64,000 nt of DNA, from positions 207-64,206 of the forward strand of contig JAGTQC010000008.1 of assembly GCA_018396535.1 (NCBI GenBank), written 5' to 3'. The position numbers and the translations under genes were made by a program. Every line of letters starts with the position of its first letter. Position 1 is the first letter of the stretch. The notes under the pieces were generated by a model that searched no databases, was not told the DNA's origin, and saw nothing but the letters and a program-made list of their open reading frames with translations. This DNA comes from Candidatus Bathyarchaeota archaeon. GTDB lineage: Archaea; Thermoproteota; CALKCG01; B24; DRYS01. This document shows, in pieces, positions 18,354 to 61,865 of this stretch.

Positions 18354-18371
18354 CTGGGATACTCTAAGATT

Positions 18372-18602: not shown

Positions 18603-18609
18603 CTCCTAG

Positions 18610-18785: not shown

Positions 18786-18941
18786 GTGTCTGAGGAGAGG
18801 ATCTATGTTAAAGTTCTTCTTAGAGGTGATGTACTCAAGAATTTCCGGTATATTAAGAGTAGGCTTGGATTAGAGAGTGATGCTGAAGTCGTTAGATACC
18901 TTATAATGCAGGAGTATAGGAGGCTAACTGGTGAGCCATAG
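18786..18941 (+). CDS. ribbon-helix-helix (CopG-like) small regulator, divergent from virus operon
   Basis: 51-aa GTG-start ORF, below the track cutoff and directly preceded by an in-frame TAG. ERIYVKVLLRGDVLKNFRYIKSRLGLESDAEVVRYLIMQEYRRL fits a beta-strand/helix/helix pattern. Confidence 0.5.
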   Translation: MSEERIYVKVLLRGDVLKNFRYIKSRLGLESDAEVVRYLIMQEYRRLTGEP

Positions 18942-19089
18942 AGTTCGAGTATGCTGAGTTTAGGATACCTATTTTAAACGCTATCTTTATCCTACTAGAT
19001 GAGCTTTCCTCACGGTATCCTATATGAGCGATGTTTAAGTATTCTAAAGCTTCTCGAATAGCTTATGTATGGTTTAAGAGCTTCTTCGA

Positions 19090-21186: not shown

Positions 21187-21205
21187 AGCTTCTGTCTAGC
21201 ACCTC

Positions 21206-44339: not shown

Positions 44340-45080
44340 AGAATAACCGTATGAGAAGTATAGTTAAGATATCTATAGATTGCGTGGGGTATAGTGTACC
44401 TGAAGGCTTAACCTTGGGATAGGCTCTAAAGCTATGCGGTTATAGCTTCGACACGTTTCCAACTAGGGTCGGCCATATTCTCCTTGTGGTATTCTAGTTG
44501 ATGGAGGAGCTTATTAGATCATGTATAACCAGTGTTAGAGATGGAATAGGATCAAGACTGATTAAGTAATGTACCGCCACTTAGAATTATGGATGAGCCA
44601 TCCCCTCTACTGTTGGAGGTAAAGCGACGCCATGGTTTGAAGTTAGAGAGCCGGGTGGATTTACAGAAGTAGCTATATGGGCTATCGGATTTTAATTTTA
44701 GATGTAGAAGTTACCAGAATTATAACATAAAATAATTCATCAACCTCATATACTCCATATGAAGCTACTCTTCTTGTAACATATTATCGCAGGTTTCATA
44801 GAGTTAACGGTATAGCTATAAGCGATGGAGAGCCCCCAATAGCCGCTGGCTTATAGAATATTTGAAAAACTTAGGAGATTGAATAGCGTTAGCGAAGCTA
44901 GATTACACCTGGATAGTAATGGTACTATACTAACCTCTGACCACATAAAGTGATTTAGTGGAAACTAGGGTTAATGATGTAGGAGTTGTACCTAAAGGTC
45001 TTAGTACGTAAACTTTCATGAATATAACGGTATAAACTATAGAAAGTTAGTTGAGCTCATCAACTAAAGACCGGTTGGGT
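44340..45080 (+). pseudogene. decayed radical SAM activase-like gene (PflA/AmmeMemoRadiSam-like)
   Basis: Fragments lie in shifting frames with stops: VKISIDCVGYSVPEGLTLG*, FTEVAIWAIGF*F*M* (Cys-motif region), GIAISDGEPPIAAGL*, IFEKLRRLNSVSEARLHLDSNGTIL. Confidence 0.45.
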
Positions 45081-45413
45081 ATCGTTAAGTGTATGGTAAG
45101 GTATAAGGGTGAAGTATACGTAGGTAGGTGCAGTATACCGTATAACAGAGCTTTTATAAGCGTATAGTAACTTACCTAGATATGCTTTACATTAGCATCT
45201 ATAGATTTTGATATTCATATGCGTTCTATACTGCTTCCCAGTTTTCCATAGAAAAGATGTATGTAGATCGAGTTGTTGAGAAATGCTGAAAGTTAAGCAT
45301 GTAATTAATAATGTAGATGTAGGATTGGAATATATATCATAGTTCAGACAGTATTCGGTCATGCAAGACCGTAATATAGCATCATACCATCTAAAGCTAT
45401 CTTTGGATCGAAA

Positions 45414-45424
45414 CTTTTATATTA
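45414..45424 (+). promoter_or_regulatory. candidate TATA box for rpoK operon
   Basis: CTTTTATATTA is centred about 33 nt upstream of the ATG at 45452, compatible with a short-leader archaeal promoter. Confidence 0.3.
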
Positions 45425-45451
45425 TTAGAGTTAATAGTTTATCAAGCTCTC

Positions 45452-45811
45452 ATGCCTCCACAAATTACTTATACTAGCTACGAGATTTACGAAGGAACTG
45501 ATTCAGGTGATGTATCTGAGCCGCAGGATACTGATAGAGGAGATTCTGAGAATAGTGGTAAGATTATCGGGCCTCCTCGTTTAACGAAATATGAGAAAGC
45601 TCGTATAGTAGGTGTACGTGCTTTGCAAATAGCTATGGGTGCCCCGATCCTAATTAAGCTTCCACCAAATACTGATAAATCGCCTTTCTCTATAGCGCTT
45701 TACGAACTCGAGAAAGGTGTGTTACCCATAACCATAAGGAGAAAGCTTCCTGATGGAAGTTTTCAAGATATACCTTTAAAATGGCTTATAGAAGGTAGGA
45801 GAAATGAGTAA
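45452..45811 (+). CDS. rpoK: DNA-directed RNA polymerase subunit Rpo6 (RpoK) with acidic N-terminal extension
   Basis: The core LTKYEKARIVGVRALQIAMGAPILIKL is preceded by ~43 Asp/Glu/Ser-rich residues. Confidence 0.85.
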   Translation: MPPQITYTSYEIYEGTDSGDVSEPQDTDRGDSENSGKIIGPPRLTKYEKARIVGVRALQIAMGAPILIKLPPNTDKSPFSIALYELEKGVLPITIRRKLPDGSFQDIPLKWLIEGRRNE

Positions 45812-46394
45812 GCCTAGAATACCGCCCATACTAATCTCTATAATTCTAATAATTCTAGCTTTAGCTCTCGCTTACGGTGTATATGCTTCATTAGTATATG
45901 CATTTAAAACAAGGCATCCTATTGGCTATGTAGTAGGTACAAGTATGCTTCCGACTCTTCAACCCGGTGATTTAGTTATCATTGTAGGGGTTGAAGCTGA
46001 GGATATAGTTGTAGGTGATATTATAGTTTTTCAACCCCCCTATCGTTCTGAACCTATAATCCATAGGGTTATAGCTGTAGAAAAGATAGGTGGTAACATA
46101 TATATAACCACTAAAGGTGATAATAATCGCGTATCACTACCGGATGAGATACGCTTTCCTGTAAGTTATGTTATAGGTAAGGTTGTATATAGAGTACCTT
46201 ATATCGGGTGGATGCTCTACTTTATTCAAGCACCAGTGGTCGCTATACCTGGTATAGGCGAAGTTAAGCTGGGTTTCATATTGATAATATTACTATCACT
46301 AGTCTATATAATTCAAGATATAGTTGCTCATAGAAAGACTGAGAGATCTAAAGAAGCAGAGGACGTATGCGAGAATGCTGGGTTACAAATTTAA
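45804..46394 (+). CDS. signal peptidase I, archaeal/ER type (S26B), housekeeping copy
   Basis: N-terminal TM helix, then GTSMLPTLQPGDLVII (Ser), IIHRVI (His) and TKGDNN. Confidence 0.85.
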   Translation: MSKPRIPPILISIILIILALALAYGVYASLVYAFKTRHPIGYVVGTSMLPTLQPGDLVIIVGVEAEDIVVGDIIVFQPPYRSEPIIHRVIAVEKIGGNIYITTKGDNNRVSLPDEIRFPVSYVIGKVVYRVPYIGWMLYFIQAPVVAIPGIGEVKLGFILIILLSLVYIIQDIVAHRKTERSKEAEDVCENAGLQI

Positions 46395-46430
46395 TATAGG
46401 AGGTTTTTAAAGTTTATAAAAGAGCTTGTT

Positions 46431-47006
46431 ATGAGTAAGGAGTCTAAACTTAGGGAGCCTACCATAAGGATTGAGAATGTCGTATCTTCCGTAACGCTTG
46501 ATCAACCTATAGACCTATTATCTGTTATGAAGGCTGTACCGGATATGGTGGAGTATAAACCTGAACAGTTTCCAGGCCTCGTTTTTAGATTAAAGAAACC
46601 TAAGACAGCTACCCTTATATTTGCATCGGGTAAAATGGTATGTACAGGAGCTAAATCTGAAGCGTTAGCTAAGAGAGCTGTTAGGAAGGTTCTAAAGTAC
46701 CTCAAGGATAACGGTATACTAATAGTATCACGTCCTGAAATTAAGATACAGAATATAGTAGCTTCCGCAGATATACATGCTAGGATAGATCTCGAAAAAG
46801 CTGTATTCGCTTTAGGACGTACAATGTATGAGCCTGAGCAGTTTCCAGGTTTAATCTATCGTATGGATGAACCTAAGGTTGTTATGCTCCTATTCGCAAG
46901 CGGGAAACTAGTATGTACTGGTGCTAAGAAAGAATCTGAAGTAAAGGAGGCAGTATATAGGCTTAGGGATGAGCTCGAACAGAAGCAGCTATTATACTAT
47001 GAGTAG
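46431..47006 (+). CDS. tbp: TATA-box binding protein
   Basis: Two direct repeats: IENVVSSV ... EQFPGLVFRL ... LIFASGKMVCTGAKS, and IQNIVASA ... EQFPGLIYRM ... LLFASGKLVCTGAKK. Confidence 0.95.
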   Translation: MSKESKLREPTIRIENVVSSVTLDQPIDLLSVMKAVPDMVEYKPEQFPGLVFRLKKPKTATLIFASGKMVCTGAKSEALAKRAVRKVLKYLKDNGILIVSRPEIKIQNIVASADIHARIDLEKAVFALGRTMYEPEQFPGLIYRMDEPKVVMLLFASGKLVCTGAKKESEVKEAVYRLRDELEQKQLLYYE

Positions 47007-48619
47007 ATTCTCTCTTTAAGTTTCTTAAAAATAAAACCAGATTCTATGGGTACTAGAGGTGTGAAGACGCTATAGTATCTGAAGCTGGATGCATCCTCCA
47101 GGGTTTCCGTAGTTCCTCCCCCAGCTATGTATCCATCTACGAAGGAATCTATGATATCCTTGAGTAGCTTTAGATCACCATTTGGAATTTCTATACTCGT
47201 AAGATATAATAGCTCAGCTATATCCCATCCTAGGCTCTGATTAGATTCTTTAAATTGCTCTAGATCCAGTATGTATAGTCTCCCATCTGATCCGAATAAT
47301 ATATGGCTAGGCTTAACATCACCTAAACGATAGCCTAGATTATGTATTCTACCTATCAGGCTACCGAGGAGTCCATAGATTTCACGTATTTTTTCACTAC
47401 ATCTTTTAAGCATAGATTTGAGGCTCTCCCCATACACGTATTCTCTAACCATATACAATTTTCTAAGATCTATACATATTATCGGCGTATATGGTAGCCC
47501 TTCCTCGCTAAATTTCATAAGTCCTAGATACTCGTTGAGTAGCCTATTCTTAGGTTTAACTTCAAAATCTACAGCTAGCTGTGACCATAAGGATACTGGT
47601 ATCCATTTAGCTAAATCAAATCTTCCATACATTTTGACAAGTATTCTTTTACCATCGCCATCGACCAGGTACGTTAAGCTAAATGGATGCCCTATCCTTC
47701 TAACTTTAGGTTTCTCGAATCCAAGCTCTTTCAGTATAGTTGATAGAGCTTCACCACGATCAGCAACCTGTATACCTCTATGCGTAGGTAGATAGATATG
47801 CCCACGTATGTCAAGCTTAAAATCTGAAGCTCTATATGATCTCAGGAGTTTAGATATAAACTCCTCTAGGAATACTTTAAGGAAAACATCTCTACCAGCA
47901 TAGGTATGTACTGTATAAGATTTAACTACTCTAACCATCTTCCCGCTAATCCTCTTGATAATGTATCTCTTACCATCTATAAGCGATAGTATAGATCTAT
48001 CTAATTGTATGAATCCATCCTGGAGCTTAATATATCCATCAGATTCTATAGATTTTAAGGCTTCGTATAATCCATCCATAATAATCCTAAGATTCTTTTC
48101 CCCTCTATCGCCTGATAGCATAAGCTTGTAGCTATAACCTACTGGTGGGTACGTCTTAGCTCTTCTACTTAGATAGCATAGAGGTATGTAGGTAGGATCT
48201 ATTAGAAGATATTCTATTACGGTTTTATACGTGTATGCAAGCTCCAATAGCTCTTCCAAAGCTACTCTTCTTTTCATAGATATCTCCCACATCCTCACGT
48301 ACTCTCTATTCGATAACGGTATGAATGGTGTGAAAAGTCTACCAGATACGAAATCGCCTAGGATCGAATCTCTTATATCTGCTTCGAATATCTCTCTATC
48401 CACAGCTAGGATAGCTAACTTAACCCTACCAAATGGTTTATAATGATACTGTATCCTCGCAGACAGCCCATCCATCACGGCTATCACGTCATAATCGCTA
48501 TCTTCCCTAGCATAACCTGAAACTCTAGATCCATACAGTATCACAGCTCTAACAGATTCAGCCCCCTCCTCAGATGCTACCTTATCTACTAGCTCCAATA
48601 TACTATTGCTTAGGTCCAT
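46997..48619 (-). CDS. fusion of minimal nucleotidyltransferase domain and RIO/Bud32-like protein kinase domain
   Basis: N-terminus: VILYGSRVSGYAREDSDYDVIAV (GS...DxD of the Pol-beta superfamily). C-terminus: MVREYVYGESL, IHNLGYRLGDVKPSHILF and LYILDLEQF (catalytic and DFG-like loops). Confidence 0.6.
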   Translation of the reverse strand: MDLSNSILELVDKVASEEGAESVRAVILYGSRVSGYAREDSDYDVIAVMDGLSARIQYHYKPFGRVKLAILAVDREIFEADIRDSILGDFVSGRLFTPFIPLSNREYVRMWEISMKRRVALEELLELAYTYKTVIEYLLIDPTYIPLCYLSRRAKTYPPVGYSYKLMLSGDRGEKNLRIIMDGLYEALKSIESDGYIKLQDGFIQLDRSILSLIDGKRYIIKRISGKMVRVVKSYTVHTYAGRDVFLKVFLEEFISKLLRSYRASDFKLDIRGHIYLPTHRGIQVADRGEALSTILKELGFEKPKVRRIGHPFSLTYLVDGDGKRILVKMYGRFDLAKWIPVSLWSQLAVDFEVKPKNRLLNEYLGLMKFSEEGLPYTPIICIDLRKLYMVREYVYGESLKSMLKRCSEKIREIYGLLGSLIGRIHNLGYRLGDVKPSHILFGSDGRLYILDLEQFKESNQSLGWDIAELLYLTSIEIPNGDLKLLKDIIDSFVDGYIAGGGTTETLEDASSFRYYSVFTPLVPIESGFIFKKLKERIYS

Positions 48620-48715
48620 AATACCCCCTACTCGACCCTCTTCATTCGTATATCTATAGACTCGATCCTATAATCTTTAAGAACGCGTTACGTTATAATA
48701 AAAGTCGATAAAGCT

Positions 48716-49345
48716 TTGGTATATGTATCGCTAGCTCTAGATTTCATAGATCTAAACGATGCTCTGAAGATAGCCGAGAAATGCTACAGATTCTTCGATA
48801 TATTAGAAGCTGGTACACCGCTCATTAAAGCTGAAGGTTCTAAGCGCTGTATAGATGCGTTAAGAAAATTCAATTTACCCATATACCTAGACCTTAAAAC
48901 AGTCGATGTAGGGGGATTGGAGGCTCTCCTATCGGCAGACCCAGTCAGATACGCTACGGTATTGGCCCTGTCCGATGAGTCTACGATAAGGGATTTCCAT
49001 AATGTATGTAAATCTAAAGGCGTATACTCAGTTATGGATACTATAAGGTGTAACATCAATAGGATTGGTGAAATAGATGTACCGGTAGACTATGTAGCTA
49101 TACATTTGGGAGTAGATGAGAGGAGGGTTGGAGGGGATATAGTATCTGTAGTGAAGATATTTAGAAGCGTATATGGTGATAGACGTCTAGCAGTAGGAGG
49201 AGGCCTATCACCTGAGAAAATATCGAATTTACTACCCTTGCTACGTGGTGACGATATATTAATAGTTGGATCCTATGTTTCAAGATCAAGTAATCCAGAG
49301 GAATCAGCTAAGCAGCTGAGGGGGGTCATGGATGAATTCATATAG
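48716..49345 (+). CDS. hxlA: 3-hexulose-6-phosphate synthase (OMP decarboxylase family)
   Basis: SLALDFIDLNDAL, ILEAGTPLIKAEG and DLKTVDVG match the HPS pattern. Confidence 0.7.
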   Translation: MVYVSLALDFIDLNDALKIAEKCYRFFDILEAGTPLIKAEGSKRCIDALRKFNLPIYLDLKTVDVGGLEALLSADPVRYATVLALSDESTIRDFHNVCKSKGVYSVMDTIRCNINRIGEIDVPVDYVAIHLGVDERRVGGDIVSVVKIFRSVYGDRRLAVGGGLSPEKISNLLPLLRGDDILIVGSYVSRSSNPEESAKQLRGVMDEFI

Positions 49346-50489
49346 TATAGATGATATTTTCCAAATTTTCCCAGATAACTATCTTAAGTTATGCGATCTA
49401 CTCAGATCATTCGAGCTACCAGAGAGCATGCTATTTGATAAACTTAAATCTATGGTTGAAGAATCACATAGAATATTATGCATAGGTACAGGTAGATCTG
49501 GTGACGTAGCTGATATACTATCTAAGTTTCTACGTAATCTTGGTTTCCATAGTTACGGACCAGAGGAGCTGCCATATATGTTTGGTAAGAATGATCTAGT
49601 CATAGCAATATCTGGTAGTGGTTCAACTCCGTATACGCTTGAAATAGTTAGGATTGCTAAAAGCATAAGCGCGCATATAGTAGGGTTTACATCCAACTTG
49701 GATTCCCCACTGGTTAAATTCCTAGACCTAGTATTTCATATACCAGGTGCACCTAAACGTAAACCCTTAAGATATGAGGTCATATCGCTGTCAGGCATAT
49801 ACTCTACACCGCTACTAATGTTGGGAGGTACTTTATTCGAGCTCAGAACACTCCTAGTTATACTTTCATTCATAGGCTATATGGCTCTAGGTTTAAACCC
49901 GTATAGCGTTTTCATGGATATGGTCTCGCTCTGCGCATCCTTCAAGCCTAATTATGATCAAGTTAAGTCACTGTATACTCTTATACCTAAACCTAGAAGC
50001 TTAAAAAACCCTTTATCAGGTAAGACTGTCGCTGTAGGTGAAGGTCTTTCAGGTATAGTTGCTAGATTCTTTATAACGCGGCTAAGGCATTGTGCTCACC
50101 CGGATGAGGAAAGGGTATGCTTCTATTGGCGTGATAGGGGCAGCGTAGCTTTAAAGCCGGGAGATCTTACACTCATAGTATCTGGCTCTGGTGAAGGTAT
50201 ACCAGCGGTTATGGCTAGAATAGCTAGAATGAAGAATTCTAAAGTTGCATCGATAACATCATACCTGGATTCTGAGCTAGCTAAGCTATCAGATGTAGTA
50301 GTCTATGTACCTGGACGAGTACTACAATATATAGATGGACTCAGAGGTAGCTATCTACCCATGGATCCAAAACAGTCTATATTCGAGCTTAGGACAATAA
50401 TATTGTTAGAGACGCTTATACAGTCTATAGCTCGTATAGAAGGTTTAACCGATAGGGATTTATGGGCTCATCATCCAGACTTCATGTAG
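49332..50489 (+). CDS. hxlB: 6-phospho-3-hexuloisomerase-like protein with two SIS domains
   Basis: Two SIS repeats: ILCIGTGRSGDVA ... LVIAISGSGST, and TVAVGEGLSGIVA ... LTLIVSGSGEG. It overlaps the hps-like gene by 14 nt. Confidence 0.65.
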   Translation: MNSYSIDDIFQIFPDNYLKLCDLLRSFELPESMLFDKLKSMVEESHRILCIGTGRSGDVADILSKFLRNLGFHSYGPEELPYMFGKNDLVIAISGSGSTPYTLEIVRIAKSISAHIVGFTSNLDSPLVKFLDLVFHIPGAPKRKPLRYEVISLSGIYSTPLLMLGGTLFELRTLLVILSFIGYMALGLNPYSVFMDMVSLCASFKPNYDQVKSLYTLIPKPRSLKNPLSGKTVAVGEGLSGIVARFFITRLRHCAHPDEERVCFYWRDRGSVALKPGDLTLIVSGSGEGIPAVMARIARMKNSKVASITSYLDSELAKLSDVVVYVPGRVLQYIDGLRGSYLPMDPKQSIFELRTIILLETLIQSIARIEGLTDRDLWAHHPDFM

Positions 50490-50568
50490 TTTTCAAGTTA
50501 ACGCTTTTCTATAAGATCGTCTTAGACTAGGTTTACAGGATCTACGCTGTATGGATGGGAGAATCTGA

Positions 50569-51696
50569 ATGTCTGATAGGAGGTTCGTAGTTACACCTTG
50601 GGAGGTTAGAGGGGAGGTAGACTACGATAAGCTGATAGAAGAATTCGGTGTACAACCGATAAGCGAAGAACTAGAGGAGAGATTCAAGAGGTATACTGGA
50701 GGAAAACTTCATCTACAAATTAGGAGAAGAATATTCTTCTCGCATAGAGACTTCGATTGGATATTGGACTCCTATGATTCCGGAGAGCGATTCTTCCTAT
50801 ACACTGGTAGAGGGCCATCCGGGCATACACATATAGGCCATATAATACCTTGGATATTCACTAAGGATCTACAGAAGTGTTTCGATGTAGAAGTATACTT
50901 CCAGCTTACAGATGATGAAAAGTTCTTAGTTAAACCAGATCTAAGATTGGAGGATACGATTAGCTATGCATATGATAACGCCTTAGATGTTATAGCATGT
51001 GGATTTGAGAAGGGTAAAACATGGCTCTTCCTAGATACAGAGTATATCAAAACATTGTACAGTATAGCTTTAAGGATAGCTAAACATACAACATTCTCTA
51101 CCGTTAAAGCTGTCTTCGGTTTCACAAGCTCTACTAACATAGGTATGATATTCTTTCCAGCTATACAGGCTGCACCCTGCTTCCTTCCGTCAGTAGTGAG
51201 GGGACGTAATATTCCATGTCTAATACCCGCTGCGATAGATCAGGACCCATACTGGCGTGGTGTAGCTAGAGCAGTAGCTCCTAAGCTTGGATTCTATAAG
51301 CCTGCACAGATACACTGTAAATTCCTACCCGGATTAGGTAGAGGTGGTAAAATGAGTGCCAGTCAACCTGAGACCGCTATATTCACAACAGATAAACCTG
51401 AAGTAGCTGAAGTTAAGATTATGAACGCATACACAGGTGGTCAGCCTACAGTTAGGGAGCAAAAGGCTAAAGGAGGTAATCCTGACATATGTCCGATATA
51501 CCACTACTACCTATTCCTCTTCGAAGAAGATGATAGTAAACTAAAGGAAAGATATCTAAATTGTCGCAGCGGCTCACTACTCTGTGGAGACTGTAAGGAG
51601 AACCTAGCTAAACGTGTATCATCCTTCCTTAAGGATCATCAGAAGCGACGCATGGAAGCTAGAAATATTCTAGAAGATTTCATCCTCAGAGATTAG
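50569..51696 (+). CDS. trpS: tryptophanyl-tRNA synthetase
   Basis: HIGH region GRGPSGHTHIGH and KMSAS motif (GGKMSASQP). Confidence 0.85.
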   Translation: MSDRRFVVTPWEVRGEVDYDKLIEEFGVQPISEELEERFKRYTGGKLHLQIRRRIFFSHRDFDWILDSYDSGERFFLYTGRGPSGHTHIGHIIPWIFTKDLQKCFDVEVYFQLTDDEKFLVKPDLRLEDTISYAYDNALDVIACGFEKGKTWLFLDTEYIKTLYSIALRIAKHTTFSTVKAVFGFTSSTNIGMIFFPAIQAAPCFLPSVVRGRNIPCLIPAAIDQDPYWRGVARAVAPKLGFYKPAQIHCKFLPGLGRGGKMSASQPETAIFTTDKPEVAEVKIMNAYTGGQPTVREQKAKGGNPDICPIYHYYLFLFEEDDSKLKERYLNCRSGSLLCGDCKENLAKRVSSFLKDHQKRRMEARNILEDFILRD

Positions 51697-51706
51697 AGGT
51701 GAGATT

Positions 51707-53245
51707 ATGAAGGATAGGATTAACCTATCAAACATTGGGCGTAGGATAATAGAGTTAATGGGTAGTATAGGATCACCTATCTATATGGATAGACTTGCAT
51801 CTATGCTAGATCTATCCGTAAGCCAGGTTGCTTCGATAATAGAGGATCTCAGATCCAAGGGCCTCATAGAGTGTATTAAAGAGGATTATCTCTCTATTAG
51901 GGTTACTAGTGAAGGTGAATCTTACCGTAGATTAGGTCTTCCTGAAAGGCGTTCTATACGTAAGCTTCTAGAGCTTGGCTCTATACCTATAACTAGGCTT
52001 TTGGAAGAGGTTGGATTGACGGATGCGGAGGCTAGGATAGCTAGCATATGGCTTATAAAGAGGGGTTGGGCTAAGATAGAAGATATCGGCGGTATTAAGG
52101 TACTGAAACCTATAGTTGAATGTGAACCTGAACTTACAGCTGATGAAAAACTTCTAGAGTCTATAGGTCTGGAATATTCTATTCCTATTAATGCTCCTAG
52201 AGATCTGATAGAAGCTCTAGCCGTATTGGAGAAAAGGAAGCTTGTAGAGAAGGATGTTAGACATAGGGTTATCGTTAGGCTAACAGATTACGGCTTAAAA
52301 GTTGCCAGAGGTGAGGTGCAAGTTCTGGAGGAAGTTACGAGGGTTACAAGTAGTCTACTTGTGAGTGGTGGATGGCGCAATGTTGTATTCAAACCCTATG
52401 ATGTAACGTTACCAGTATACCAGCTCTACCCAGGTAGAAGACATTTCCTCAGACAAGTTCTAGATTATATGAGGCGTATATGGGTTGAGATGGGGTTCAA
52501 GGAGATGGAGGGACCGATAGTGGAGACTGCATTCTGGGATTTCGATGCTTTATATGTACCGCAAGATCATCCAGCTAGAGATATGCAAGACACATTCTAT
52601 CTTAAGAATCCTAGATATGGTAGTCTACCAGATCGTAGTTTAGTCGAAAAAGTTAGGGCAGCTCATGAATATGGAGGAAGTACAGGATCTAGGGGTTGGC
52701 GGTATATGTGGAGTGATGAGGAAGCTAGAAGGTGCTTACTAAGAACTCATACAACATGCCTTTCTGCTAGAACTATCGCTACGCTTAAGAAATGTGATCT
52801 ACCAGCTAAATTCTTCTCTATAGGTAGGGTTTTCAGGAATGAAACCTTAAGCTGGAAGAGTTTATGCGAATTTTATCAAACAGATGGTATCGTAGTTGAT
52901 GAGAAAGCTACGTTTGCCCATCTCCTAGGATACTTAAAGAGATACTTCACTATGTTAGGCTTCAGAGATATAAGGTTTCGTCCAGCATACTTCCCCTATA
53001 CTGAGCCCTCTGTGGAGATAGAGGTCTATCACCCGGTTTATAAGCAGTGGCTTGAGCTTGGTGGCGCAGGTGTATTCAGGCCTGAAGTCGTAGAAACCCT
53101 TTTAGGTATGGATATACCAGTATTAGCATGGGGTCCAGGATTAAATCGTATAGTTATGATGAACTATGGTATCAAGGATATAAGGGAGCTTCATGCGAAT
53201 GATCTTAGACAGCTACGTGAGTTACCTGATTGGATAGGTGTATAA
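51707..53245 (+). CDS. pheS: phenylalanyl-tRNA synthetase alpha subunit
   Basis: Class II core motifs (HPARDMQDTFY, LRTHTT, FSIGRVFRNE, GAGVFRPEV) with N-terminal winged-helix repeats. Confidence 0.9.
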   Translation: MKDRINLSNIGRRIIELMGSIGSPIYMDRLASMLDLSVSQVASIIEDLRSKGLIECIKEDYLSIRVTSEGESYRRLGLPERRSIRKLLELGSIPITRLLEEVGLTDAEARIASIWLIKRGWAKIEDIGGIKVLKPIVECEPELTADEKLLESIGLEYSIPINAPRDLIEALAVLEKRKLVEKDVRHRVIVRLTDYGLKVARGEVQVLEEVTRVTSSLLVSGGWRNVVFKPYDVTLPVYQLYPGRRHFLRQVLDYMRRIWVEMGFKEMEGPIVETAFWDFDALYVPQDHPARDMQDTFYLKNPRYGSLPDRSLVEKVRAAHEYGGSTGSRGWRYMWSDEEARRCLLRTHTTCLSARTIATLKKCDLPAKFFSIGRVFRNETLSWKSLCEFYQTDGIVVDEKATFAHLLGYLKRYFTMLGFRDIRFRPAYFPYTEPSVEIEVYHPVYKQWLELGGAGVFRPEVVETLLGMDIPVLAWGPGLNRIVMMNYGIKDIRELHANDLRQLRELPDWIGV

Positions 53246-53248
53246 GGT

Positions 53249-54952
53249 ATGCCTGTTGTATCGGTTAAGCTTAGAGATTTCTGTAGCCTTCTAGGATTGG
53301 ATCTAAGTATAGATGATCTAAGAGATAAAATGCCTATGATGGGTATAGCTTGGGAAAGGGATTATGAAGATGGATTCGATGTAGAGGTATTTCCTAATAG
53401 ACCGGATATGTTCTCTGTAGAAGGTCTTGCAAGAGCTTATGCAGGATTCATAGGTGTGAGTAATGGTTTGCGAAGTTATAATGTTAGAGAGAATGGACCT
53501 ATAGTATACGTAGATAGGAGTATGGCATCTATCAGACCTTATATACTCGTAGCTCTTATAGATGGTGTAGACATATCTGAATACTCCTTAGAATCGATAA
53601 TACAGCTTCAAGAAAAGCTTCACTTATCGTACTGTAGAGATAGACGTAAAGCTTCGATAGGTATACATGATGCAAGTAGACTAGAGTATCCTCTAATATA
53701 CAAAGCCGTAGGTGGGGACGAGCTTAGGTTCAAGCCTCTAGATTTTGATGAGGAATTAACTCCTAGAGAGATAATAGAGAAGCATCCTAAGGGTATAGCG
53801 TATGGGCATCTAATACGTGGCTACGGGTTATATCCTATACTCATGGATGCTAGGGGTAGGGTTCTAAGCATGCCTCCGATAATAAACGGAGAGTTTACGA
53901 GAGTTACTACGTCAACTAAGCGGCTCTTACTAGATGTTACTGGCTTAGATATGGATATAGTTTCTTCGGTTATGAAGATCCTTGTATGCAATATATGTGA
54001 AAGAGGCGGTGTGATCTATAGAGGCGAAGCTATCTACGAGTATGATACACCGCTGGGTATGCGTGTTAAAGCCCCGATTCTAGAACCATATACGATGAAA
54101 CTCGATCTAAGTAGAGCCTGTAGACTCATAGGTGTAGATATAAGCATAGAAGAAGCTCTAAAACTTCTTAAACGCATGAGATATGACGCTAAGGTTGTCG
54201 ATGAAAAAACTATAGAAGTATACATACCGCCGTATAGAGTGGATATTATGCATTGGGTTGATCTAGCTGAAGATCTACTAATAGCATTTGGCTACAATAA
54301 AGTTGAGCCAGTTATACCTGCTATAGCCACTATAGGTGGCGAAAGTCCAATAGAACTATTTACTAGGAAAATCCGAGAGATAATGGTTGGTTTAGGTTTC
54401 CAAGAAGTTATGACATACATACTTACAAACCCTATAGATCAATTCGATCTCATGAGGGTTGATAGATCTCCATATGTAGAGATAGAGAACCCTAAGACTT
54501 TAGAGTTCACCATGTGTAGACTATGGCTCCTTCCATGTCTGATGAATGTCCTCGCCTCGAATAAGCATAACCCATATCCTCAGAAGATATTCGAAGCGGA
54601 TGATGTAGTAGTATTAGACCAATCCTCAGAGACTGGGGCTAGAAATCTAAGAAAGATGGCGGCGGCTTCAGCTCATGCTGAAGCAGATTTTGCAGAAGCA
54701 AAAGCTATAGCAGAAGCGTTGATGAGATGTTTAGGGCTTCAAGCATCCTATAAACCCTTAATTCATCCATCATTTATAGATGGTAGAGCAGCAGCGATAG
54801 AAGTTGATGGGGAGGAAATAGGTTTCCTAGGGGAAATACATCCCGAAATACTCGAGAATCTAGGATTAGAAAATCCTGTAGCCGCATTGGAAGTGAATTT
54901 AGAGTTATTATACAACATAATTAAAAGGAGGAAAGGGATATTGGATCTATAG
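53249..54952 (+). CDS. pheT: phenylalanyl-tRNA synthetase beta subunit
   Basis: 567 aa directly downstream of pheS. It has B3/B4- and B5-like regions (FPNRPDMFSVEGLARA). Confidence 0.9.
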   Translation: MPVVSVKLRDFCSLLGLDLSIDDLRDKMPMMGIAWERDYEDGFDVEVFPNRPDMFSVEGLARAYAGFIGVSNGLRSYNVRENGPIVYVDRSMASIRPYILVALIDGVDISEYSLESIIQLQEKLHLSYCRDRRKASIGIHDASRLEYPLIYKAVGGDELRFKPLDFDEELTPREIIEKHPKGIAYGHLIRGYGLYPILMDARGRVLSMPPIINGEFTRVTTSTKRLLLDVTGLDMDIVSSVMKILVCNICERGGVIYRGEAIYEYDTPLGMRVKAPILEPYTMKLDLSRACRLIGVDISIEEALKLLKRMRYDAKVVDEKTIEVYIPPYRVDIMHWVDLAEDLLIAFGYNKVEPVIPAIATIGGESPIELFTRKIREIMVGLGFQEVMTYILTNPIDQFDLMRVDRSPYVEIENPKTLEFTMCRLWLLPCLMNVLASNKHNPYPQKIFEADDVVVLDQSSETGARNLRKMAAASAHAEADFAEAKAIAEALMRCLGLQASYKPLIHPSFIDGRAAAIEVDGEEIGFLGEIHPEILENLGLENPVAALEVNLELLYNIIKRRKGILDL

Positions 54953-55387
54953 AGCTTTAGGTTTCAACTTATGAACATCCTAAAAAGACATCTATATCAA
55001 CATACAACCCCTCCATCCATCTAGACTCCCATCGTATTTTCCTTAGTGAAATAGCAGAATGTTTCGATAATGTGATTATTACAACATTGGATGGTATCTG
55101 TAACGGTGATAGCTTTAGCTATAAGCGTTATTAGTTGCTTATAGATTACTTTAAATTTTATCTAAGGTGATTATAAAGTCTTAGGGAATGTTTTTATTGC
55201 TAATAAGTTCACTAAATATTATAAAAGAGTCACGATATGTGAATCTAAATCACGAATTGCGATTATGAAATATATTTTCTTAAAGTTTCTAAAATCTGTA
55301 TAACCGTCATATATCTATGTATAAATATATCATTTTCTTATATGTATCAAAGATACCCTTATTATCTAACTGCTTTTTGAAGTTGAA

Positions 55388-56239
55388 CTAATATCTCCCT
55401 ACACTTATCTCTCGCTTATCTCTTGCATATGGTTCCATATATGGTTGTCCCCCTCCATAGAGACAACCATCTAGGCATATATAGAGCGGTACTCTCATTT
55501 AGTTCCCTTATCTTAAGTTTTCGACAACCCTCTCTATCTGCTCTATACCTATGGCTTTAGCTAGCTATCCACCCGATTCATCCTCATCTAATTCTATCCT
55601 ATCGAAATTAGATTCTGGTAGTGAATCTACATCTACCTTAGCTAGTAATCTTGTAGTCTCCCTGGTAGTTAACGTTAATTTTCTTCCAATCTTTCTAGCT
55701 AGGTATGGAGTAATCCATATAGAATCTCTACGATCTAGCATGGGTGGTTTAACCACATACTCTGATAAGCTTGGATGACATATATGTATATACCTGATCT
55801 TCAGCTTCAATATATAGGATAGGATAAGCTTTACTTCGTTTTTAGAAGTAGTTACCGTAAGTTTAGGTTTCCATAAAACGACTCTACCAACCCCAACCCT
55901 TCTTAAAGCCTCTACTATCTTACCATAGAGATCTCCACCTATATTTAACGCTTCACATAGACCTGCAACCGCTTCATGCTCTATATATATCGGGAGCCGC
56001 CCCTCTACTAAGCATAATACCTATATATACCTAGTAGAGTCTGCCTCGATTATAACTCCTACTGGGTAGTACACAGCACATTGACCACATGCTATACATG
56101 ATGCCTCATCTAGTTTAATACCGAATAGTGTGGTGACGATCGTATTTATACTCCTGTAAGCATAATCCAAAACAGTCATCACATTACGGCATACAGTAAT
56201 ACAGCGTCCGCATACAATACATTTCCCCCATCTAAGCAT
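55388..56239 (-). pseudogene. decayed [FeFe]-hydrogenase catalytic subunit (HydA-like) gene
   Basis: Ferredoxin part: CIVCGRC...CIACGQCAVYYPVG. The H-domain relics are broken by stops and frame changes:
- HEAVAGLCEALNIGGDLYGKIVEALRRVGV
- ICHPSLSEYV, in place of TSCCPGW
- TLTTRETTRLLAKVDVDSLPESNFD
- YICLDGCLYGGGQPY, the P3 motif
The MPCxxKK region is missing. Confidence 0.6.
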
Positions 56240-57300
56240 AAGATAGAGCCTTCTACATTGAATAGCTTCTCCTTAACTAATGGAAATCGTTTTTCACATT
56301 GTTTAATTCACTTACCTTCTTAGAATCCTCTTTATCAAATCTAGAAATTCATAGCAGTCTATGGGCATCCTCTAATATAGTAATCTATATTCTACATTTA
56401 CATATAGGATTCCCCTTTAGAGGTAGATTATGTGCTATCTCATGGGTATCTACCTCAATATCGTTTTGATAAATCTCCTTAAGCCGGGATACCTCCAAGT
56501 AGGGCGCACGTCCCTAAAGCCACTAATATCTTAGACTTACCTCTGATTGCTTTCAATTTTTCTTCATCCTCATTTGATACCATAGCTCCTTCGACTAAAG
56601 CTGCATCGCATGATTCAATCTCAGTATTTATCTGCGTCATCATAGGGCTGATGGTTTCCATACCCTCCTCTAATATCATTTCTAGAAGGGTTTCACCGAT
56701 ACGTAGCAGTTCGTTAATACAGTCTGAGCAGCTTCCCAGCTGGTAGATACGTATCTTCATATATAGTCTTAAGCCCCTATCTATATTCACTCTCCTCAAA
56801 TGGATTAAGTAGAAGCTTAACTATCGTATTATAGCCTGGATAACTTGAACCATATATTGAAAACTTGTCTAACACCGTATCCAAGTTTATACCATATTTA
56901 GCGTAAAGCTTAGCTGCCTCACGTATAATATCAGTAGATGTTATAGGTCCACGGTGTCCTTCGTAAATCTTCCCTTTGCGTGGGCGCACTCCTTTGCAAC
57001 CTGCACTCGTTATAGGTCCAAGGTATGCTTCCCCTCTAGCTAGTAGACAATTATCCCCATGCAAGGGGCATTCAGCACATACAAGTATACCCTCAACCCC
57101 ATACTCTTTACACAACTCTAAAAGTTTACATAATCCTTTCCTAGGGTATGAATGGCATGCTACCTTATGGGTTGCGAGTATTGCTTCTAGAGCTATTCTA
57201 CGCGCTTCCCCTAACCCTAGTATTATCTGTTTCTATAGATAGTTTATCGGATACAGGAAATGTGTGAAGGTACAAATCTGCCTGTTCATGATAATTCGAC
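56240..57300 (-). pseudogene. [NiFe]-hydrogenase small-subunit-like segments (group-3 HydD/HoxY-like), degenerate and out of order
   Basis: 57115-56777: VCAECPLHGDNCLLARGEAYLGPITSAGCKGVRPRKGKIYEGHRGP, i.e. the C-terminal pattern with several Cys ligands replaced. 56799-56479: KIRIYQLGSCSDC ... AALVEGAM ... ILVALGTCALLGGIPA, i.e. the N-terminal pattern. Confidence 0.5.
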
Positions 57301-59011
57301 TATACATACTCTACATGTAGCTTCAATTGTCCGCATATAATACATTATACTAGAATCTATCTTATACGATCCATTATCGCTTCTAGCTATAGCTTATACT
57401 GGGCATTGTTTAGCGCATAAGCCGCATCCTACGCAGGTATTTTTCATCAATCATATAATCTACAAGCCTACTACAAACCTTTGCAGGACATTTTTCGCTT
57501 TTATATGTATTTCATACTTCATTTCTAAAGTATTTTAACGTAGATGGAATAGGGTTTGGCGCTGTTTGACCTAGAGCGCATAGACTCGCATTCTTCATAA
57601 ACATCCCTACCTCCTCGAGTATCTCGAGATTATTCTCAGATCCCTCCCCTTCGATGATTCTTGTTAACGTATCGTATAGTATCTTAGATCCAACTCTACA
57701 AGGGATACACTTACCGCATGACTCAGCCATGGTAAACGATGTGAAGAATCTAGCTATATCGACTATACAATTTCCACAATCTATAACTATCAATCCTCCT
57801 GAACCCATTATAGCACCTGCCGATGTTAAACTCTCATAGTCCATAGGTAGATCTAGCATACTCTCTAGGAGACATCCACATGAAGGTCCACCTATTTGAA
57901 CCGCTTTAAATTTTCTCCTCTCTAACGCCTCCAGCTAGCTTAAATATCAAATCCTTCACAGTTATATCTATCGGAACCTCTACAACAGCAGTTCTCGCAG
58001 CGGATCCAGTTATACAGAAAACCTTTGTACCTTTGCTTCTATCCGTACCATATGAGGCAAATTTTCCCATCCATCATTATAGTAGCTACATGAGCAAGAG
58101 TTCCACATTATTTATCACAGTAGGTTTATCAAATAACCCGTATGTAGCTGGATAGGGTGGGCGTTGTCTAGGCATAGCTCTTCCCCCCTCAATAGCGGCT
58201 AGCATAGCAGTTTCTTTACCACATACAAATGCTCCAGCACTACGGGCAACCTCTACATCGAAGTCTGAGTATGATATGTTACGGCCTAGGAGACCGTAGC
58301 ATCTAGCATCCTTTACAGCCTTCATAGCGTAAGCCGCGGTTATCAATCCTTCAAGAACTCTATGAAGATCAGCCTCTGCTAACATCCTATTCATGAAAGC
58401 TCCCGGGCCCCCTTATCAGCGTTGTACACAACATATTTAGGTTGTTGCCCTTTAGCTTCTCTACAAATGCTCCACTTCAGCCATGTAGGAAAGTCTGCCT
58501 TACCTCTTCCTCTTAAACCAGACTTCTTAATAACTTCAATAACATCTTTAGGTCTAGATTCTAAAGCCCTAGCTAGTCCACGGTATCCTCCATAAACTAT
58601 ATAATCCTCTATAGATTCAGAATCGACTATTCCACAATTTCTAGTAACCCATCTTACCTGATGTTTGAAGAAATCTATCTCATCTAGTAAAGGTACTTCA
58701 GATTCACCTCTAGCCGATCCAACTCTATTTCTAAGAGCGAATGCTTCGCTAACATCACCTCCTAGATATGCATCTAGAATTTCGCCTACAGATTCAGGTC
58801 TCACCCTACCATAGATTGCAGAAGGCATTCCATTTCTATGGATCTCTACTATAGGCTCCATATAACATAACCCCATACATCCAACTGGTATAACAGAAGC
58901 CTCCACCCTTCTTTTCTCGACTTCTTTTAAAACTAAATGATACACATCCCTAGCTCCGACTGCTAGCCCACAACCACCCATACCGATAGAAATCTTTAAT
59001 CCACTTCCCAC
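57301..59011 (-). pseudogene. decayed NuoF/HydB-like flavoprotein subunit gene with N-terminal Trx-like 2Fe-2S domain and C-terminal 4Fe-4S extension
   Basis: Split over at least 3 ORFs plus gaps:
- GLRGRGKADFPTWLKW ... NADKGARELS*
- LHRVLEGLITAAYAM ... GAFVCGKETAMLAAIEGG
- GSGGLIVID ... ESCGKCIPCRVG ... LCALGQTAPNP
There is an in-frame TGA at 57512-57514, further frameshifts, and an internal deletion. Confidence 0.7.
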
Positions 59012-59181
59012 TCTTAATCTCAGATATCCTGAACTTTATCTTCTCCCTACAATCTACTTCATCATGGCATAGGGGGCCGTTAATCCTACAATCTATGTAC
59101 TACTTTCTACAAGGAGTTTCTACTGAATGTCTACATATACTGCAACATCTATCCATTAGATTCCATCGCATCATACCGCTT

Positions 59182-59693
59182 TCATCTAGATTTAGGATTA
59201 TCAACTTTAGCTCTAGATCTGTAAGATGTACGTATTTCATTAAAGCCGACTTTGCCATATACTTCGTCGTTCACCTTAATTACAGGTGCTAAGCTGCAGC
59301 ATCCTAGACACCTAACCTTCAAGACTATAAATAATCCATCCGTAAATGTTCTTCCATTAGGCTTTATACCAAGGAGGTTTAAGAGAAACTTGTAGTTTTC
59401 AGAATTGCCTCTAATATAGCATGCTGTACTCATACATATCTGCACTACATATGTGCCTGGAGGCTCTAAGATGAATTGGTGGTAGGAGGTAGCGACTCCA
59501 TAGATAGTACTCAAAGGTACCCCTAAATGATTGGAGATATATTCTAGGCTCGTTTTCGAAGGATATCCTAACTTTGCTTGAATTGATTGTAAGATAGGGA
59601 TTAACCCCCTCTTATATCTAATAAACGTCTTATAGCATCTTCTAAGACCTCTTCCATTAATTCATTGTTTTCCATTTCAGTAGTACGCTGCAT
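59182..59693 (-). pseudogene. NuoE/HoxE-like 2Fe-2S subunit gene with one frameshift
   Basis: MQRTTEMENNELMEEVLEDAIRRLLDIRGG* then, one frame over, LIPILQSIQAKLGYPSKTSLEYISNHLGVPLSTIYGVATSYHQF ... CMSTACYIRG ... CLGCCSLAP. The break is at the C5 run 59605-59609. Confidence 0.7.
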
Positions 59694-60473
59694 TACCTCA
59701 CCCCGTTACATGATCTTAATCTAAACATAGATAGTGTTATTCCTATTATGTAACCATGAGGTGAAAACAGGTATTTAATACCTTCTTCAAACAGTCAATC
59801 TTAATCTCTTCTACCCATTGGATTCCAGGATCATTGTATAGAGTAGCTGGGTCATCTAGAATAACACTATTGTATGGTACTATAGTCTCAGATAAAGCCA
59901 TTTCAAAAGAACCCTCCTTACACTTATAAACCCTAAGGGATTATTCGAAGTAGTTTAAAGCTATTAAGATTAGAAAATTGTTGCATATTTAAATTGTATC
60001 TCCATACATATATCCATCAACCTGCTCACCCATCCTATTACACTAAAATCTAGTATGATTAGAGCCCTTAATAATAACGATTATTCATATGGGATATCCT
60101 TTTAATCAATCATAGTTCCATTTTCATACTGTTCGTATCCATAATCTTCTTTCCCGACTCCATTATTCTTGTCTTACCAAACAAGAATTTTTCTTAGAGA
60201 AGCGGATTAAAGTAATATTTTCTCATATATTCCAAGATAGCTGCTTTGAAGTGACTTTAGTATCTGGGTAAGTATTCTACTTTTAGGTATCTCGCAGCTT
60301 TTCAATACAGTACCCGGATTATATGAAAATATCTTAATTCATTATTACTATAGTTAGTCTTTATGTATTGATTAAAAATCTTTAACAAGAGGAAGCATTT
60401 TTGTTAAAAATAAGTTATGTTATGAAATAATAGTTTATTATTTCATACTATAAATAGTAATATAAAATGACTA

Positions 60474-61865
60474 TCATTGTTGACGCGTAGTCAGCGTTGT
60501 TATACTTTCTGATGGAAATGTTAACTCTAATGTCATATCTTTAGCAACTACATCTCCAATATATTTGCAGTATTCAGTTCTTGATGTACGATATTGCTTG
60601 AAGAGTGATATTGAAGTAATATTCTTTAATATTATTTTAGTGGTTATATCAGATTTACCTCTATTTATCACGACAATCGTAATATCATTATTTTTCTCAT
60701 CTAAGTATGCTGAAACTAATAGTTGAGAATCGATACTCTTCGCATCTATTCTTATAGAACCTGGGCTTATGAATTTAAAAAACTGTTTAACTGCGTAGTA
60801 TTTAGGTGTAACATTATAGTGATCGCCCGCTCTACTTATGCTGATCAACCCGGTTTCCCTATACCAGAAAAGCTCCCATACTAGGTATGCTGAAGCATTA
60901 CCATATACTAATGTATTATGGATGTGTTGAACTGTATACAGTGCCTCCTCGTATGTCCCTGCGTAGGGGAAGTCTAGATAGCTATACTCTGTCATCCATA
61001 ATGGTTTACCATATCTAGTACAATAGCTAGCTATCGCTTTAAGCCATGATACTCCTTCATCAGGATTAGTAAAGGGTATATCATATAGGTGTATAGCGAA
61101 GACATCGACGTATCGAGCCGCATCCGGATCAGACATTACCACTTCTATATACCTAAGCGCTTTTTGGATACCTGATGTTTCTGGGATAACTATTTTCGCT
61201 GTTATGCCCTCCCTTTCAAATTTTTTACCAACAACCTTAATTAAATCTCTCAACTGTTCAGGTGTGTAAACACAAGTTTCCCATGTAGCAGTATAGTCAG
61301 GCTCATTCTGTATACCTATCCAGCCTATATCTATACCATGATGCTTCTTATACCCTAGAATATACGCAGATATCCACTCCGCATACTCTTCATACATCTC
61401 TGGTAGGAGATAACCGTCATCTGTTTCTCGTAGATTACTCTTCATCCATGCTGGGGGGCTCCAAACGGAAGCCATAAACTTCGTAACACCCCTCTTCATA
61501 GCTTCTATAGCATTCCACACTTGATCCTGATCCACTGTGAAATCGTATGCCTCCCAGTTAAATCTATTTGGATCATCATCATCGTTTATACTTTCGATTT
61601 TAGTCCAAGCTCTCAGTCTGTAGATGCATATCCCGAGATCAGAGAAGAGTAGATCTGCAACTTCTGTCCTATATGGCTCTCTAAGATTCTTTAGAAGCCA
61701 CTCATAGTATGCGCCTGAACCGCCAAATCCATCGATCCTTTGATACTTTCTCGCTCCGTCAACCTCTATAGATTTTTCACCTATATTTTGGATAAGAAAA
61801 TATGATATCAACCCTACCAATATAACTATGGTGAGTATTAAGAGTCTTCTCTTCACTTTAAACAC
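60474..61865 (-). CDS. membrane-anchored glycoside hydrolase, GH30-like
   Basis: N-terminal TM helix, then QRIDGFGGSGAYY, WIGIQNEPD (acid/base Glu region) and WMTEYS (nucleophile region). Confidence 0.65.
   Translation of the reverse strand: MFKVKRRLLILTIVILVGLISYFLIQNIGEKSIEVDGARKYQRIDGFGGSGAYYEWLLKNLREPYRTEVADLLFSDLGICIYRLRAWTKIESINDDDDPNRFNWEAYDFTVDQDQVWNAIEAMKRGVTKFMASVWSPPAWMKSNLRETDDGYLLPEMYEEYAEWISAYILGYKKHHGIDIGWIGIQNEPDYTATWETCVYTPEQLRDLIKVVGKKFEREGITAKIVIPETSGIQKALRYIEVVMSDPDAARYVDVFAIHLYDIPFTNPDEGVSWLKAIASYCTRYGKPLWMTEYSYLDFPYAGTYEEALYTVQHIHNTLVYGNASAYLVWELFWYRETGLISISRAGDHYNVTPKYYAVKQFFKFISPGSIRIDAKSIDSQLLVSAYLDEKNNDITIVVINRGKSDITTKIILKNITSISLFKQYRTSRTEYCKYIGDVVAKDMTLELTFPSESITTLTTRQQ

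Follow-up and report, generated by a model that had tools for sequence, protein, structure and literature searches.

A decayed hydrogenase-type operon in Bathyarchaeia

The stretch of Candidatus Bathyarchaeota DNA analysed here, 64 kb in length (the window, whose numbering is used for all coordinates), carries the relic of a hydrogenase-type operon, read on the minus strand from 55362 to 59940. It consists of a GcvH-like remnant followed by the hydC, hydB, hydD and hyhS-hydA fusion genes. With a probability of roughly 90%, these are adjacent non-functional pseudogenes that derive from a six-gene locus (HTH, GcvH-like, hydC, hydB, hydD, hyhS-hydA), intact in thermophilic relatives within the Bathyarchaeia. 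Locus L007, which is intact, syntenic and 87–90% identical to the window on the nucleotide level, was used as the reference for lesion mapping. Compared to L007, the four hyd genes contain 27 small frameshifting indels, five premature stops and two larger deletions of 63 nt and ~171 nt. At least 12 cysteines are lost, cluster ligands among them, and the glycine-rich FMN/NADH loop is ruined. Several independent disabling lesions relative to an intact orthologue, their independent reproduction and a relaxed constraint, the features by which a pseudogene is recognised, were all observed. The central inference of a first-pass annotation of the same DNA holds, namely that a hydrogenase-type operon combining NuoE/NuoF, [NiFe] small-subunit and H-domain parts is being lost.

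The relic is flanked by two intact genes, pheT (PheRS-beta, 567 amino acids (aa); 53249–54952, plus strand) and a gene for a GH30-type glycosidase (463 aa; 60474–61865, minus strand). Between them, over ~5.5 kb and on both strands, the longest open reading frame (ORF) does not exceed 206 aa, while the remainder of the window is tightly packed with long ORFs. Rfam and tRNA scans of the window returned nothing, so RNA genes do not account for the lack of long ORFs here. The GC content of the relic, 0.37–0.39, is inside the range seen across the window.

The minus-strand pieces between stops, taken from a three-frame translation, were scanned with Pfam. The NuoE-like family 2Fe-2S_thioredx (PF01257) was matched at 59661–59185 (E 2.7e-36). 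Complex1_51K on two pieces, SLBB on one and NADH_4Fe-4S (E 4.5e-30) together make up a NuoF-like protein after a Trx-like domain. They are followed by NADH-G_4Fe-4S_3, by a segment with the pattern CxxCxxxGxxC...CLGPxTxxGC, as in the C-terminal half of group 3 [NiFe] small subunits, by Oxidored_q6, the small-subunit N-domain (E 4.6e-12), and by a 2x[4Fe-4S] ferredoxin. No Pfam match was obtained for the last two, H-like pieces of the window, the second of which contains CLDGCLYGGGQP. This inventory agrees with the first-pass annotation, which had listed NuoE-like, NuoF-like, 4Fe-4S, [NiFe] small-subunit and HydA-like pieces, and the order hydC-hydB-hydD-fusion is the same as in the intact relatives. 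The relic had been placed at 55388–59693; it is indeed found there, but continues past both ends, as it reaches 55362 on one side and the GcvH-like remnant at 59749–59940 on the other. Fragments such as Complex1_51K, Oxidored_q6 and NADH_4Fe-4S pose a risk for annotation, as they could credit the population with a hydrogenase or NADH-dehydrogenase capacity that is absent.

As had been proposed, the host is an archaeon: the window encodes PriS/PriL, GINS51, AglB/STT3, TBP, RpoK and a RadA-like protein. The assignment to a class is based on the flanking housekeeping genes, which are 78% identical on the nucleotide level to metagenome-assembled genomes (MAGs) labelled Bathyarchaeia or Bathyarchaeota.

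Lesions in the individual genes

The features of the relic are as follows.

59749–59940, minus strand: GcvH-like remnant, C-terminal third only; residues 84–136 of the L007 protein match at 59907–59749 (tblastn, 66% identity, E 1.7e-19)
59182–59693, minus strand: hydC pseudogene, NuoE-like [2Fe-2S] thioredoxin-like protein; PF01257 (E 2.7e-36), 90% aa identity to L007 HydC, 5/5 Cys kept
57326–59156, minus strand: hydB pseudogene, NuoF-like diaphorase; PF01512, PF10531 and PF10589 on separate pieces
56777–57325, minus strand: hydD pseudogene, NuoG-like conduit; PF10588, aligned to L007 HydD (226 aa)
55362–56760, minus strand: hyhS-hydA fusion pseudogene; PF01058 and Fer4, 83% projected aa identity to the L007 fusion (462 aa)
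56488–56489, minus strand: polymorphic 1-nt frameshift in the fusion pseudogene; base absent in the window, present in L002 and L004 from the same population

In the upstream part of the locus, the HTH gene is essentially gone and, together with the N-terminal half of the GcvH-like gene, is missing or unrecognisable in 59941–60449; a blastn comparison of the corresponding part of L007 (3579–4797) gave no counterpart in window 59936–60449. The L008 homologue of the GcvH-like protein reaches 59940 in the same tblastn search, and a 5-nt deletion lies close to the 3' end of the remnant. The least damaged gene is hydC, which has lost 1 nt at ~59623, after codon 23, and 9 nt in frame at ~59228. A frameshift in the NuoE-like gene had been noticed before and assigned to a C5 run; the frameshift is present, but it lies ~20 nt off the G5/C5 run.

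The hydB gene encoded, in order, a Cys-rich N-terminal extension, a Trx-like domain, the FMN domain, SLBB, the NuoF 4Fe-4S domain and, at the C-terminus, a 2x[4Fe-4S] domain. Compared to L007 HydB (647 aa), it contains nine small frameshifts, an inserted TAG at 59102–59100 (after codon 18) and a TAA at 57396. The internal deletion of the NuoF-like gene reported in the first-pass annotation was identified as a loss of 63 nt at 58323, which removes 21 codons of the FMN (51K) domain. Its altered conserved residues were likewise recovered, with GRGKADFPTWLKW where the intact relative has GRGGAGFPTWLKW; the FMN/NADH loop reads GRGKADFPTW in the window and GRGGAGFPTW in L007 and L008. Window hydB therefore lacks the uninterrupted 51K domain with an intact glycine-rich loop that marks a NuoF-type diaphorase. 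The in-frame TGA described earlier, which ends the first NuoF-like piece, exists but is only the result of a 1-nt deletion at 58414; the true hydB stops are the TAA and TAG mentioned above.

The ~171-nt deletion at 57325 spans the hydB/hydD junction. On one side, the end of hydB is gone together with two cysteines of the last [4Fe-4S] motif; on the other, hydD loses its first 45 codons and with them its [2Fe-2S] N-terminus. In addition, hydD has a TGA at 57288, frameshifts at 57264 and 57211, and the substitutions C104Y, C145Y, C158R, C165Y, C168H and C225Y. The His-ligated [4Fe-4S] motif and the two C-terminal clusters of the [NiFe] small-subunit type can still be recognised, with Cys lost from them, in line with the 4Fe-4S repeats with lost cysteines and the [NiFe] small-subunit-like segments that had been noted before.

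The fusion gene consists of a [NiFe] small-subunit N-domain (proximal cluster), a 2x[4Fe-4S] ferredoxin and a reduced homologue of the [FeFe] H-domain. It carries 15 frameshifting indels, a TGA at 56310 and a TAG at 55567 ahead of the ancestral stop (TAA, 55364–55362). Both a ferredoxin cluster ligand (C233Y) and the Cys of the P2 motif (C352Y) are replaced.

Reproducibility of the frame breaks

The window PheRS-beta protein was found on 23 contigs of public assemblies. The six places listed (three NCBI MAGs, two Logan assemblies and one JGI metagenome) show the same fragmented neighbour calls in 6/6 cases, and these assemblies match the window at 99.86–100% identity along as much as 17.7 kb. 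The stretch is contained in 16 sequencing runs from several hot-spring metagenome studies (2017–2024). In run X1, it was covered by contigs at a word depth of 153–176x with one substitution and zero gaps, and low-coverage runs gave pieces identical to the window. The frame breaks are genuine and sequencing error is excluded. The operon is thus being lost rather than live, as first proposed: its breaks recur in independent assemblies and are read unchanged in the depth check of X1. Programmed frameshifting or recoding was rejected as a candidate, as the lesions are too numerous and too varied in kind.

A separate observation concerns the MAG assembly GCA_038818215.1 (L005:11367–11468), which contains ~227 extra bases duplicating a stretch from the indel site 56489 (window 56489–56615). 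The site varies among strains, and the duplication was probably introduced by the assembly.

Intact relatives and descent of the operon

A read-through of the 3' half of the relic was used as the query for homologues of the fusion. Archaeal proteins of 429–471 aa with Oxidored_q6 and Fer4 (and Fe_hyd_lg_C) were retrieved, the best being P0001 on L007. The ten best homologues share one architecture, and each of them either is archaeal or is an unnamed protein from a metagenome. Identity to the archaeal fusions is 49–63%, versus 24–39% to bacterial HydA over part of the protein.

L007 has the gene order GH10, GH30, HTH regulator, GcvH-like, hydC (173 aa), hydB (647 aa), hydD (226 aa), fusion (L007:8233–9621; 462 aa if started at MKVRIYQ) and convergent pheT. 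The same order is found in L008, L009 and L010, which belong to MAGs labelled Bathyarchaeia or Bathyarchaeota with 70–80% nucleotide identity. In L007–L010, every operon gene is covered by one uninterrupted high-scoring segment pair. The comparison with close relatives suggested in the first-pass annotation thus yielded intact copies, in L007 and in L008–L010, in synteny between GH30 and PheRS. A scan of GTDB species genomes returned 80 loci, none of them from the window's own species. The best 49 are all archaeal, from Bathyarchaeia, Desulfurococcales, Thermofilaceae, Wolframiiraptor, Ignisphaera, Pyrobaculum and Archaeoglobales, and bacterial loci were matched only in part. Because synteny is kept at 70–90% nucleotide identity, the nearest homologues are archaeal only and the base composition is unremarkable, the sequences indicate vertical inheritance of the operon within a Bathyarchaeia clade and no recent bacterial transfer.

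A second, independently decayed copy is present in L012:1–2340 (CAZBGY010000036.1), from a Bathyarchaeia MAG and 88–90% identical to L008/L011. Here, a ~4.1-kb deletion fuses a GH30 remnant directly to the hydB C-terminus, the hydB remnant contains stops, and one frameshift in hydD and two in the fusion were found. A Cys-to-Tyr change occurs at the same HydD position as in the window. The same MAG also holds L011, a nearly intact copy with one hydB frameshift. Since L012 is an independent wreck of the same operon, hot-spring Bathyarchaeia appear to have lost it more than once.

Upstream of the operon, the Bathyarchaeia clade has a conserved gene pair, an HTH regulator and a GcvH-like protein (PF01597; L007:3935–5018, L008:5673–6757, L010:3337–4374). 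The lipoyl-lysine position of the GcvH-like protein looks unconserved (NVERDF in L007, DVKN in L008). Bathyarchaeia HydB has a conserved, Cys-rich N-terminal extension of ~45 aa before the Trx-like domain (window 59156–59010; L007:5592–5740) with the pattern MDKCCSICRHSxETPCRxYxxCRIxGPLCHDxxxC, which may be an extra metal site. The L008 hydB call (608 aa) leaves this extension out although it is encoded.

Identity of the fusion protein and its H-domain motifs

A profile search of the PDB with an alignment of the fusion family (A1, P0001–P0010) matched bifurcating HydA (8a6t_A, the best match, E 2e-42; 7p5h_A) and CpI via the ferredoxin and the H-domain. For the N-domain, the matches were [NiFe] small subunits, i.e. 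Pyrococcus furiosus SHI delta, Mvh G, HoxY and Acetomicrobium mobile HydS. The same two classes were returned by Foldseek, with HydA as the top match, for an AlphaFold model of P0002; this model, with a mean pLDDT (predicted local distance difference test) of 67, a good H-like domain and a poor ferredoxin region, was used for the fold class only. Aligned to canonical HydA by hhalign, the fusion family reached a probability of 100% (E 9e-45), and the fusion of the intact relatives scores PF01058 and PF02906. The HydA-like call of the first-pass annotation was therefore upheld by the PDB profile, Foldseek and hhalign alike. No Nar1-type protein was among the matches listed (the best 60 of 157 for the PDB, 50 for Foldseek), and no search was aimed at Nar1.

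At the position aligned to P1 by hhalign, the window reads ILYIEAE, intact close relatives read IPYSEAE and the family IP[YVLR]S[EP][AV]E. A Cys is present there in 0/10 of the family members aligned, and the motif TSC[CS]PGW is absent. Because every intact close relative is also without them, the missing P1 cysteines are, judged from the alignment, a lineage trait of intact genes and not decay. The segment ICHPSL, which had been taken for a degenerate P1, corresponds to IRHPSL, downstream of the P1 position. P2, previously thought to be deleted, is present as ITPYLARK, where the relatives have ITPCLARK (C352Y); this Cys is invariant in the family, and the catalytic motif MPCxxKK is not kept in the window. 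P3 is still readable, as had been stated: CLDGCLYGGGQP, which fits CxxGCxxGGGQP, is kept at ~55477–55442 and severed from the rest by the frameshifts at 55517 and 55483.

The H-like domain of this short subfamily (430–470 aa) has only three invariant Cys, one in P2 and two in P3, which leaves no evident fourth ligand for a [4Fe-4S]H cluster. Short HyhS-HydA proteins, including those from clusters with HyhL, have no P1 Cys and instead an invariant Ser and Glu in SEAE. An exhaustive profile search revealed bridging relatives, P0085 with IIPCCYSA and P0082 with IPCSEAA, and a longer subfamily (P0087–P0091, 563–580 aa) with SWCPSA at P1 and a full-size H-domain. As the short subfamily is widespread in Thermoproteota without P1 Cys, it bears on the question whether every 'group F' sequence is catalytically competent.

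The [NiFe] large subunit HyhL was searched by tblastn with two HyhL queries. It was matched in 43 of the loci L013–L057, beside the fusion gene except in L013, where a weak [NiFe] large-subunit match (25% identity) lies downstream on the opposite strand. No match was obtained in the whole 64-kb window or in L007–L012 (4–18 kb of DNA each), and in the window clade hydD abuts the fusion gene directly, with no HyhL between them. No hydrogenase maturation gene, including those for HydE, HydF and HydG, is encoded within the window, where a radical-SAM ORF (23190–23972, 260 aa) matches the generic family only. Most archaea with [FeFe] hydrogenases are without HydEFG genes (PMC11216029).

Comparison with known systems

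According to Greening et al. (2024, Cell, PMC11216029), the group F hybrid [FeFe]/[NiFe] hydrogenase consists of a HyhS-HydA fusion with HydB, HydC and HydD. The relic resembles these group F [FeFe]/group 3f [NiFe] hybrids in its fusion of small subunit, ferredoxin and H-domain and in the contiguous hydC, hydB and hydD. Its host also fits, as group F hybrids occur in Bathyarchaeia, Thermoproteia and Asgard archaea. In Asgard P0007 and Zestosphaera P0009, more distant members of the family, the five-gene cluster has HyhL between hydD and the fusion, and 43 of the loci L013–L057 likewise hold the complete cluster, whereas the window clade is without HyhL at the locus. Further differences are that the window copy is dead, that its clade has upstream GcvH-like and HTH genes outside the published five-gene cluster, and that its short subfamily is without the P1 Cys of the longer relatives (P0085, P0087–P0091).

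HydABC of Thermotoga maritima (7p5h) and Thermoanaerobacter kivui (8a6t) shares the NuoE-like and NuoF-like subunits with the same domain order, and P2 and P3 can be aligned. Bacterial HydA starts with a [2Fe-2S]/His-cluster region and contains a complete H-domain (~350 aa) with TSC[CS]PGW, whereas the relic family has a [NiFe] small-subunit domain at the N-terminus, a separate NuoG-like part (hydD) and an H-like domain of ~200 aa. HydABCSL of A. mobile (7t2r) likewise combines NuoE/F/G-like modules with a group 3 [NiFe] small subunit, and its chains 7t2r_E and 7t2r_A were matched. It has a [NiFe] large subunit and no H-domain, while the window clade has an H-domain homologue and no large-subunit gene at the locus.

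Nar1/NARFL proteins are non-catalytic Fe-S homologues of the H-domain; they are eukaryotic and stand-alone, and four Cys are kept for the C-terminal cluster. The short subfamily may resemble them in keeping the H-domain fold without the residues needed for the [2Fe]-subcluster environment: the P1 Cys are absent, the residue ahead of the P2 Cys is Thr instead of Met, and no Met is conserved ahead of the first P3 Cys. Unlike Nar1, the relic family is encoded within a NuoEF-type operon and has retained GGGQP.

Relaxed selection and proposed history

For the hyd genes, the ratio of non-synonymous to synonymous substitution rates (dN/dS) in the comparison of the window with L007 is 0.26, versus 0.09 for GH30. 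Such a pairwise value well below 1 suggests that inactivation occurred only some way along the branch after the split from L007. At sites of the relic that are invariant in L008–L010, 139 substitutions are window-derived versus 72 L007-derived (ratio 1.93), and the same ratio, in this alignment-based relative-rate test, is 1.37 for GH30 and 1.47 for pheT. GC-to-AT transitions account for 79 of the 139 window-derived changes (G>A 48, C>T 31) versus 33 of the 72 L007-derived ones (window 55380–59700). The run of Cys(TGY)-to-Tyr(TAY) changes can be explained by this bias on the window branch.

Over 17.7 kb, the strains of the population differ at 10 sites. Eight of these, including the 1-nt indel at 56488/56489, fall within the relic and the other two within GH30, while the housekeeping genes at 45249–55300 show no difference. 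The decay is fixed in the population and, since this fusion frameshift is still polymorphic, ongoing.

Based on homology, the four hyd genes of the intact relatives would encode a soluble complex with flavin and iron-sulfur clusters that belongs to the group F hybrid type of archaea. In this complex, HydB would bind FMN and NAD(P)H and HydC would carry a [2Fe-2S] cluster. HydD would relay electrons via a [2Fe-2S] cluster, a His-ligated [4Fe-4S] cluster and two clusters of the [NiFe] small-subunit type, and the fusion subunit would join a [NiFe] small-subunit proximal-cluster domain to a ferredoxin and the reduced [FeFe] H-domain. Selection on the whole locus was probably released in the window lineage once it had separated from that of L007. 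The locus would then have accrued small indels, premature stop codons, two larger deletions and substitutions biased from GC to AT, many of which changed Cys to Tyr. Nothing about the mechanism is unusual, as selection was relaxed and mutations then eroded the genes, and the parent system was already described in 2024. What remains of interest is the Bathyarchaeia variant without HyhL and P1 Cys, the fact that it was lost repeatedly and the caution that it calls for in automated metabolic annotation. The locus also offers a case of hybrid-type loss that can in principle be dated, in which HyhL is absent clade-wide at the locus and the whole operon then decayed in at least two lineages.

Alternative explanations

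Some points weigh against complete decay of a hydrogenase operon or limit the case for it. The hydC gene is nearly whole, with one early frameshift, all Cys kept and an open frame of 146–159 codons, so a residual small hydC protein is conceivable. The acceleration at conserved sites is modest (1.9 versus ~1.4). In the metatranscriptomes X20–X22, from the same study as several of the DNA runs, one read fell in 13 kb, the organism being essentially unsampled. As the close relatives are without a HyhL gene and P1 Cys, the label 'hydrogenase' is itself an inference. Decay might be partial, with the hydC frame or the C-terminal 4Fe-4S piece of hydB still expressed and retained for another redox role, which we consider unlikely. 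The hydC frame is open at 59661–59185 (PF01257, E 3e-36) with all cluster Cys present, and its dN/dS is 0.29, not 1. On the other hand, the start region is frameshifted with no ATG, GTG or TTG in frame before 59514, the hydC changes are 10 window-derived versus 2 L007-derived, and the partner HydB is destroyed; NuoE-type proteins, as in complex I and HydABC, are not known to function by themselves. A pairwise dN/dS below 1 is also expected if most of the divergence predates inactivation. Loss of the whole operon, with no function remaining, thus appears to be the better account.

The two other explanations are much less probable still. Recent horizontal acquisition of a bacterial-type bifurcating [FeFe] hydrogenase (NuoE/NuoF/HydA) that is now being lost, as the first-pass annotation had considered, would agree with the homology of the NuoE-like and NuoF-like subunits and of the H-domain to bacterial HydABC. 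We regard it as very improbable, given the higher identity of the archaeal fusions (49–63%) than of bacterial HydA (24–39%, part of the length), the archaeal hybrid architecture of a HyhS fusion and a HydD with small-subunit clusters, the synteny kept across Bathyarchaeia relatives down to ~70% nucleotide identity, and a relic GC content within the range of the window. A live operon in which the breaks merely reflect miscalled homopolymers or other errors of sequencing or assembly can be practically dismissed. Although the 1-nt indel at 56488/56489 does vary among assemblies, the same breaks are present in at least six independent assemblies from different samples and studies and in gapless contigs at 153–176x, and the flanking 11 kb of genes are free of any break. 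Moreover, indel miscalls cannot produce the 63-nt and ~171-nt deletions, the substituted stops or the ~10 changes of Cys to Tyr, Arg or His.

A further possibility, which we put forward tentatively and consider less likely than not, concerns the clade as a whole. Its operon of four hyd genes, without HyhL and P1 Cys and with GcvH-like and HTH genes upstream, could be a distinct derivative of the hybrid, held under purifying selection in several lineages, possibly not for H2 catalysis, and lost repeatedly (in the window lineage and L012). If so, the relic would be the last step in a stepwise dismantling of a hybrid hydrogenase, and its intact relatives would offer a ready-made test of the abilities of a three-Cys H-domain.

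Other features of the window

Window 43404–45452 (2 kb) contains no ORF of at least 60 aa on either strand save one of 60 aa. Within it, no Rfam or tRNA match and no significant repeats were found. This stretch, too, may have decayed, or may be non-coding.

A head-tailed (Caudoviricetes-like) provirus or viral island is located on the minus strand at 12296–17185, probably extending over ~3600–22000. The following genes were recognised, besides many small or unannotated ORFs.

15788–17185, minus strand: terminase large subunit (PF03237)
14397–15791, minus strand: portal protein (PF06074/PF04860)
12296–14167, minus strand: weak prohead-protease match (PF04586, E 5.9e-4; 20.4 bits, below the 21-bit Pfam cut-off)

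Finally, a PIN-like ORF is present at 1635–2033, with a small upstream partner at 1415–1648.

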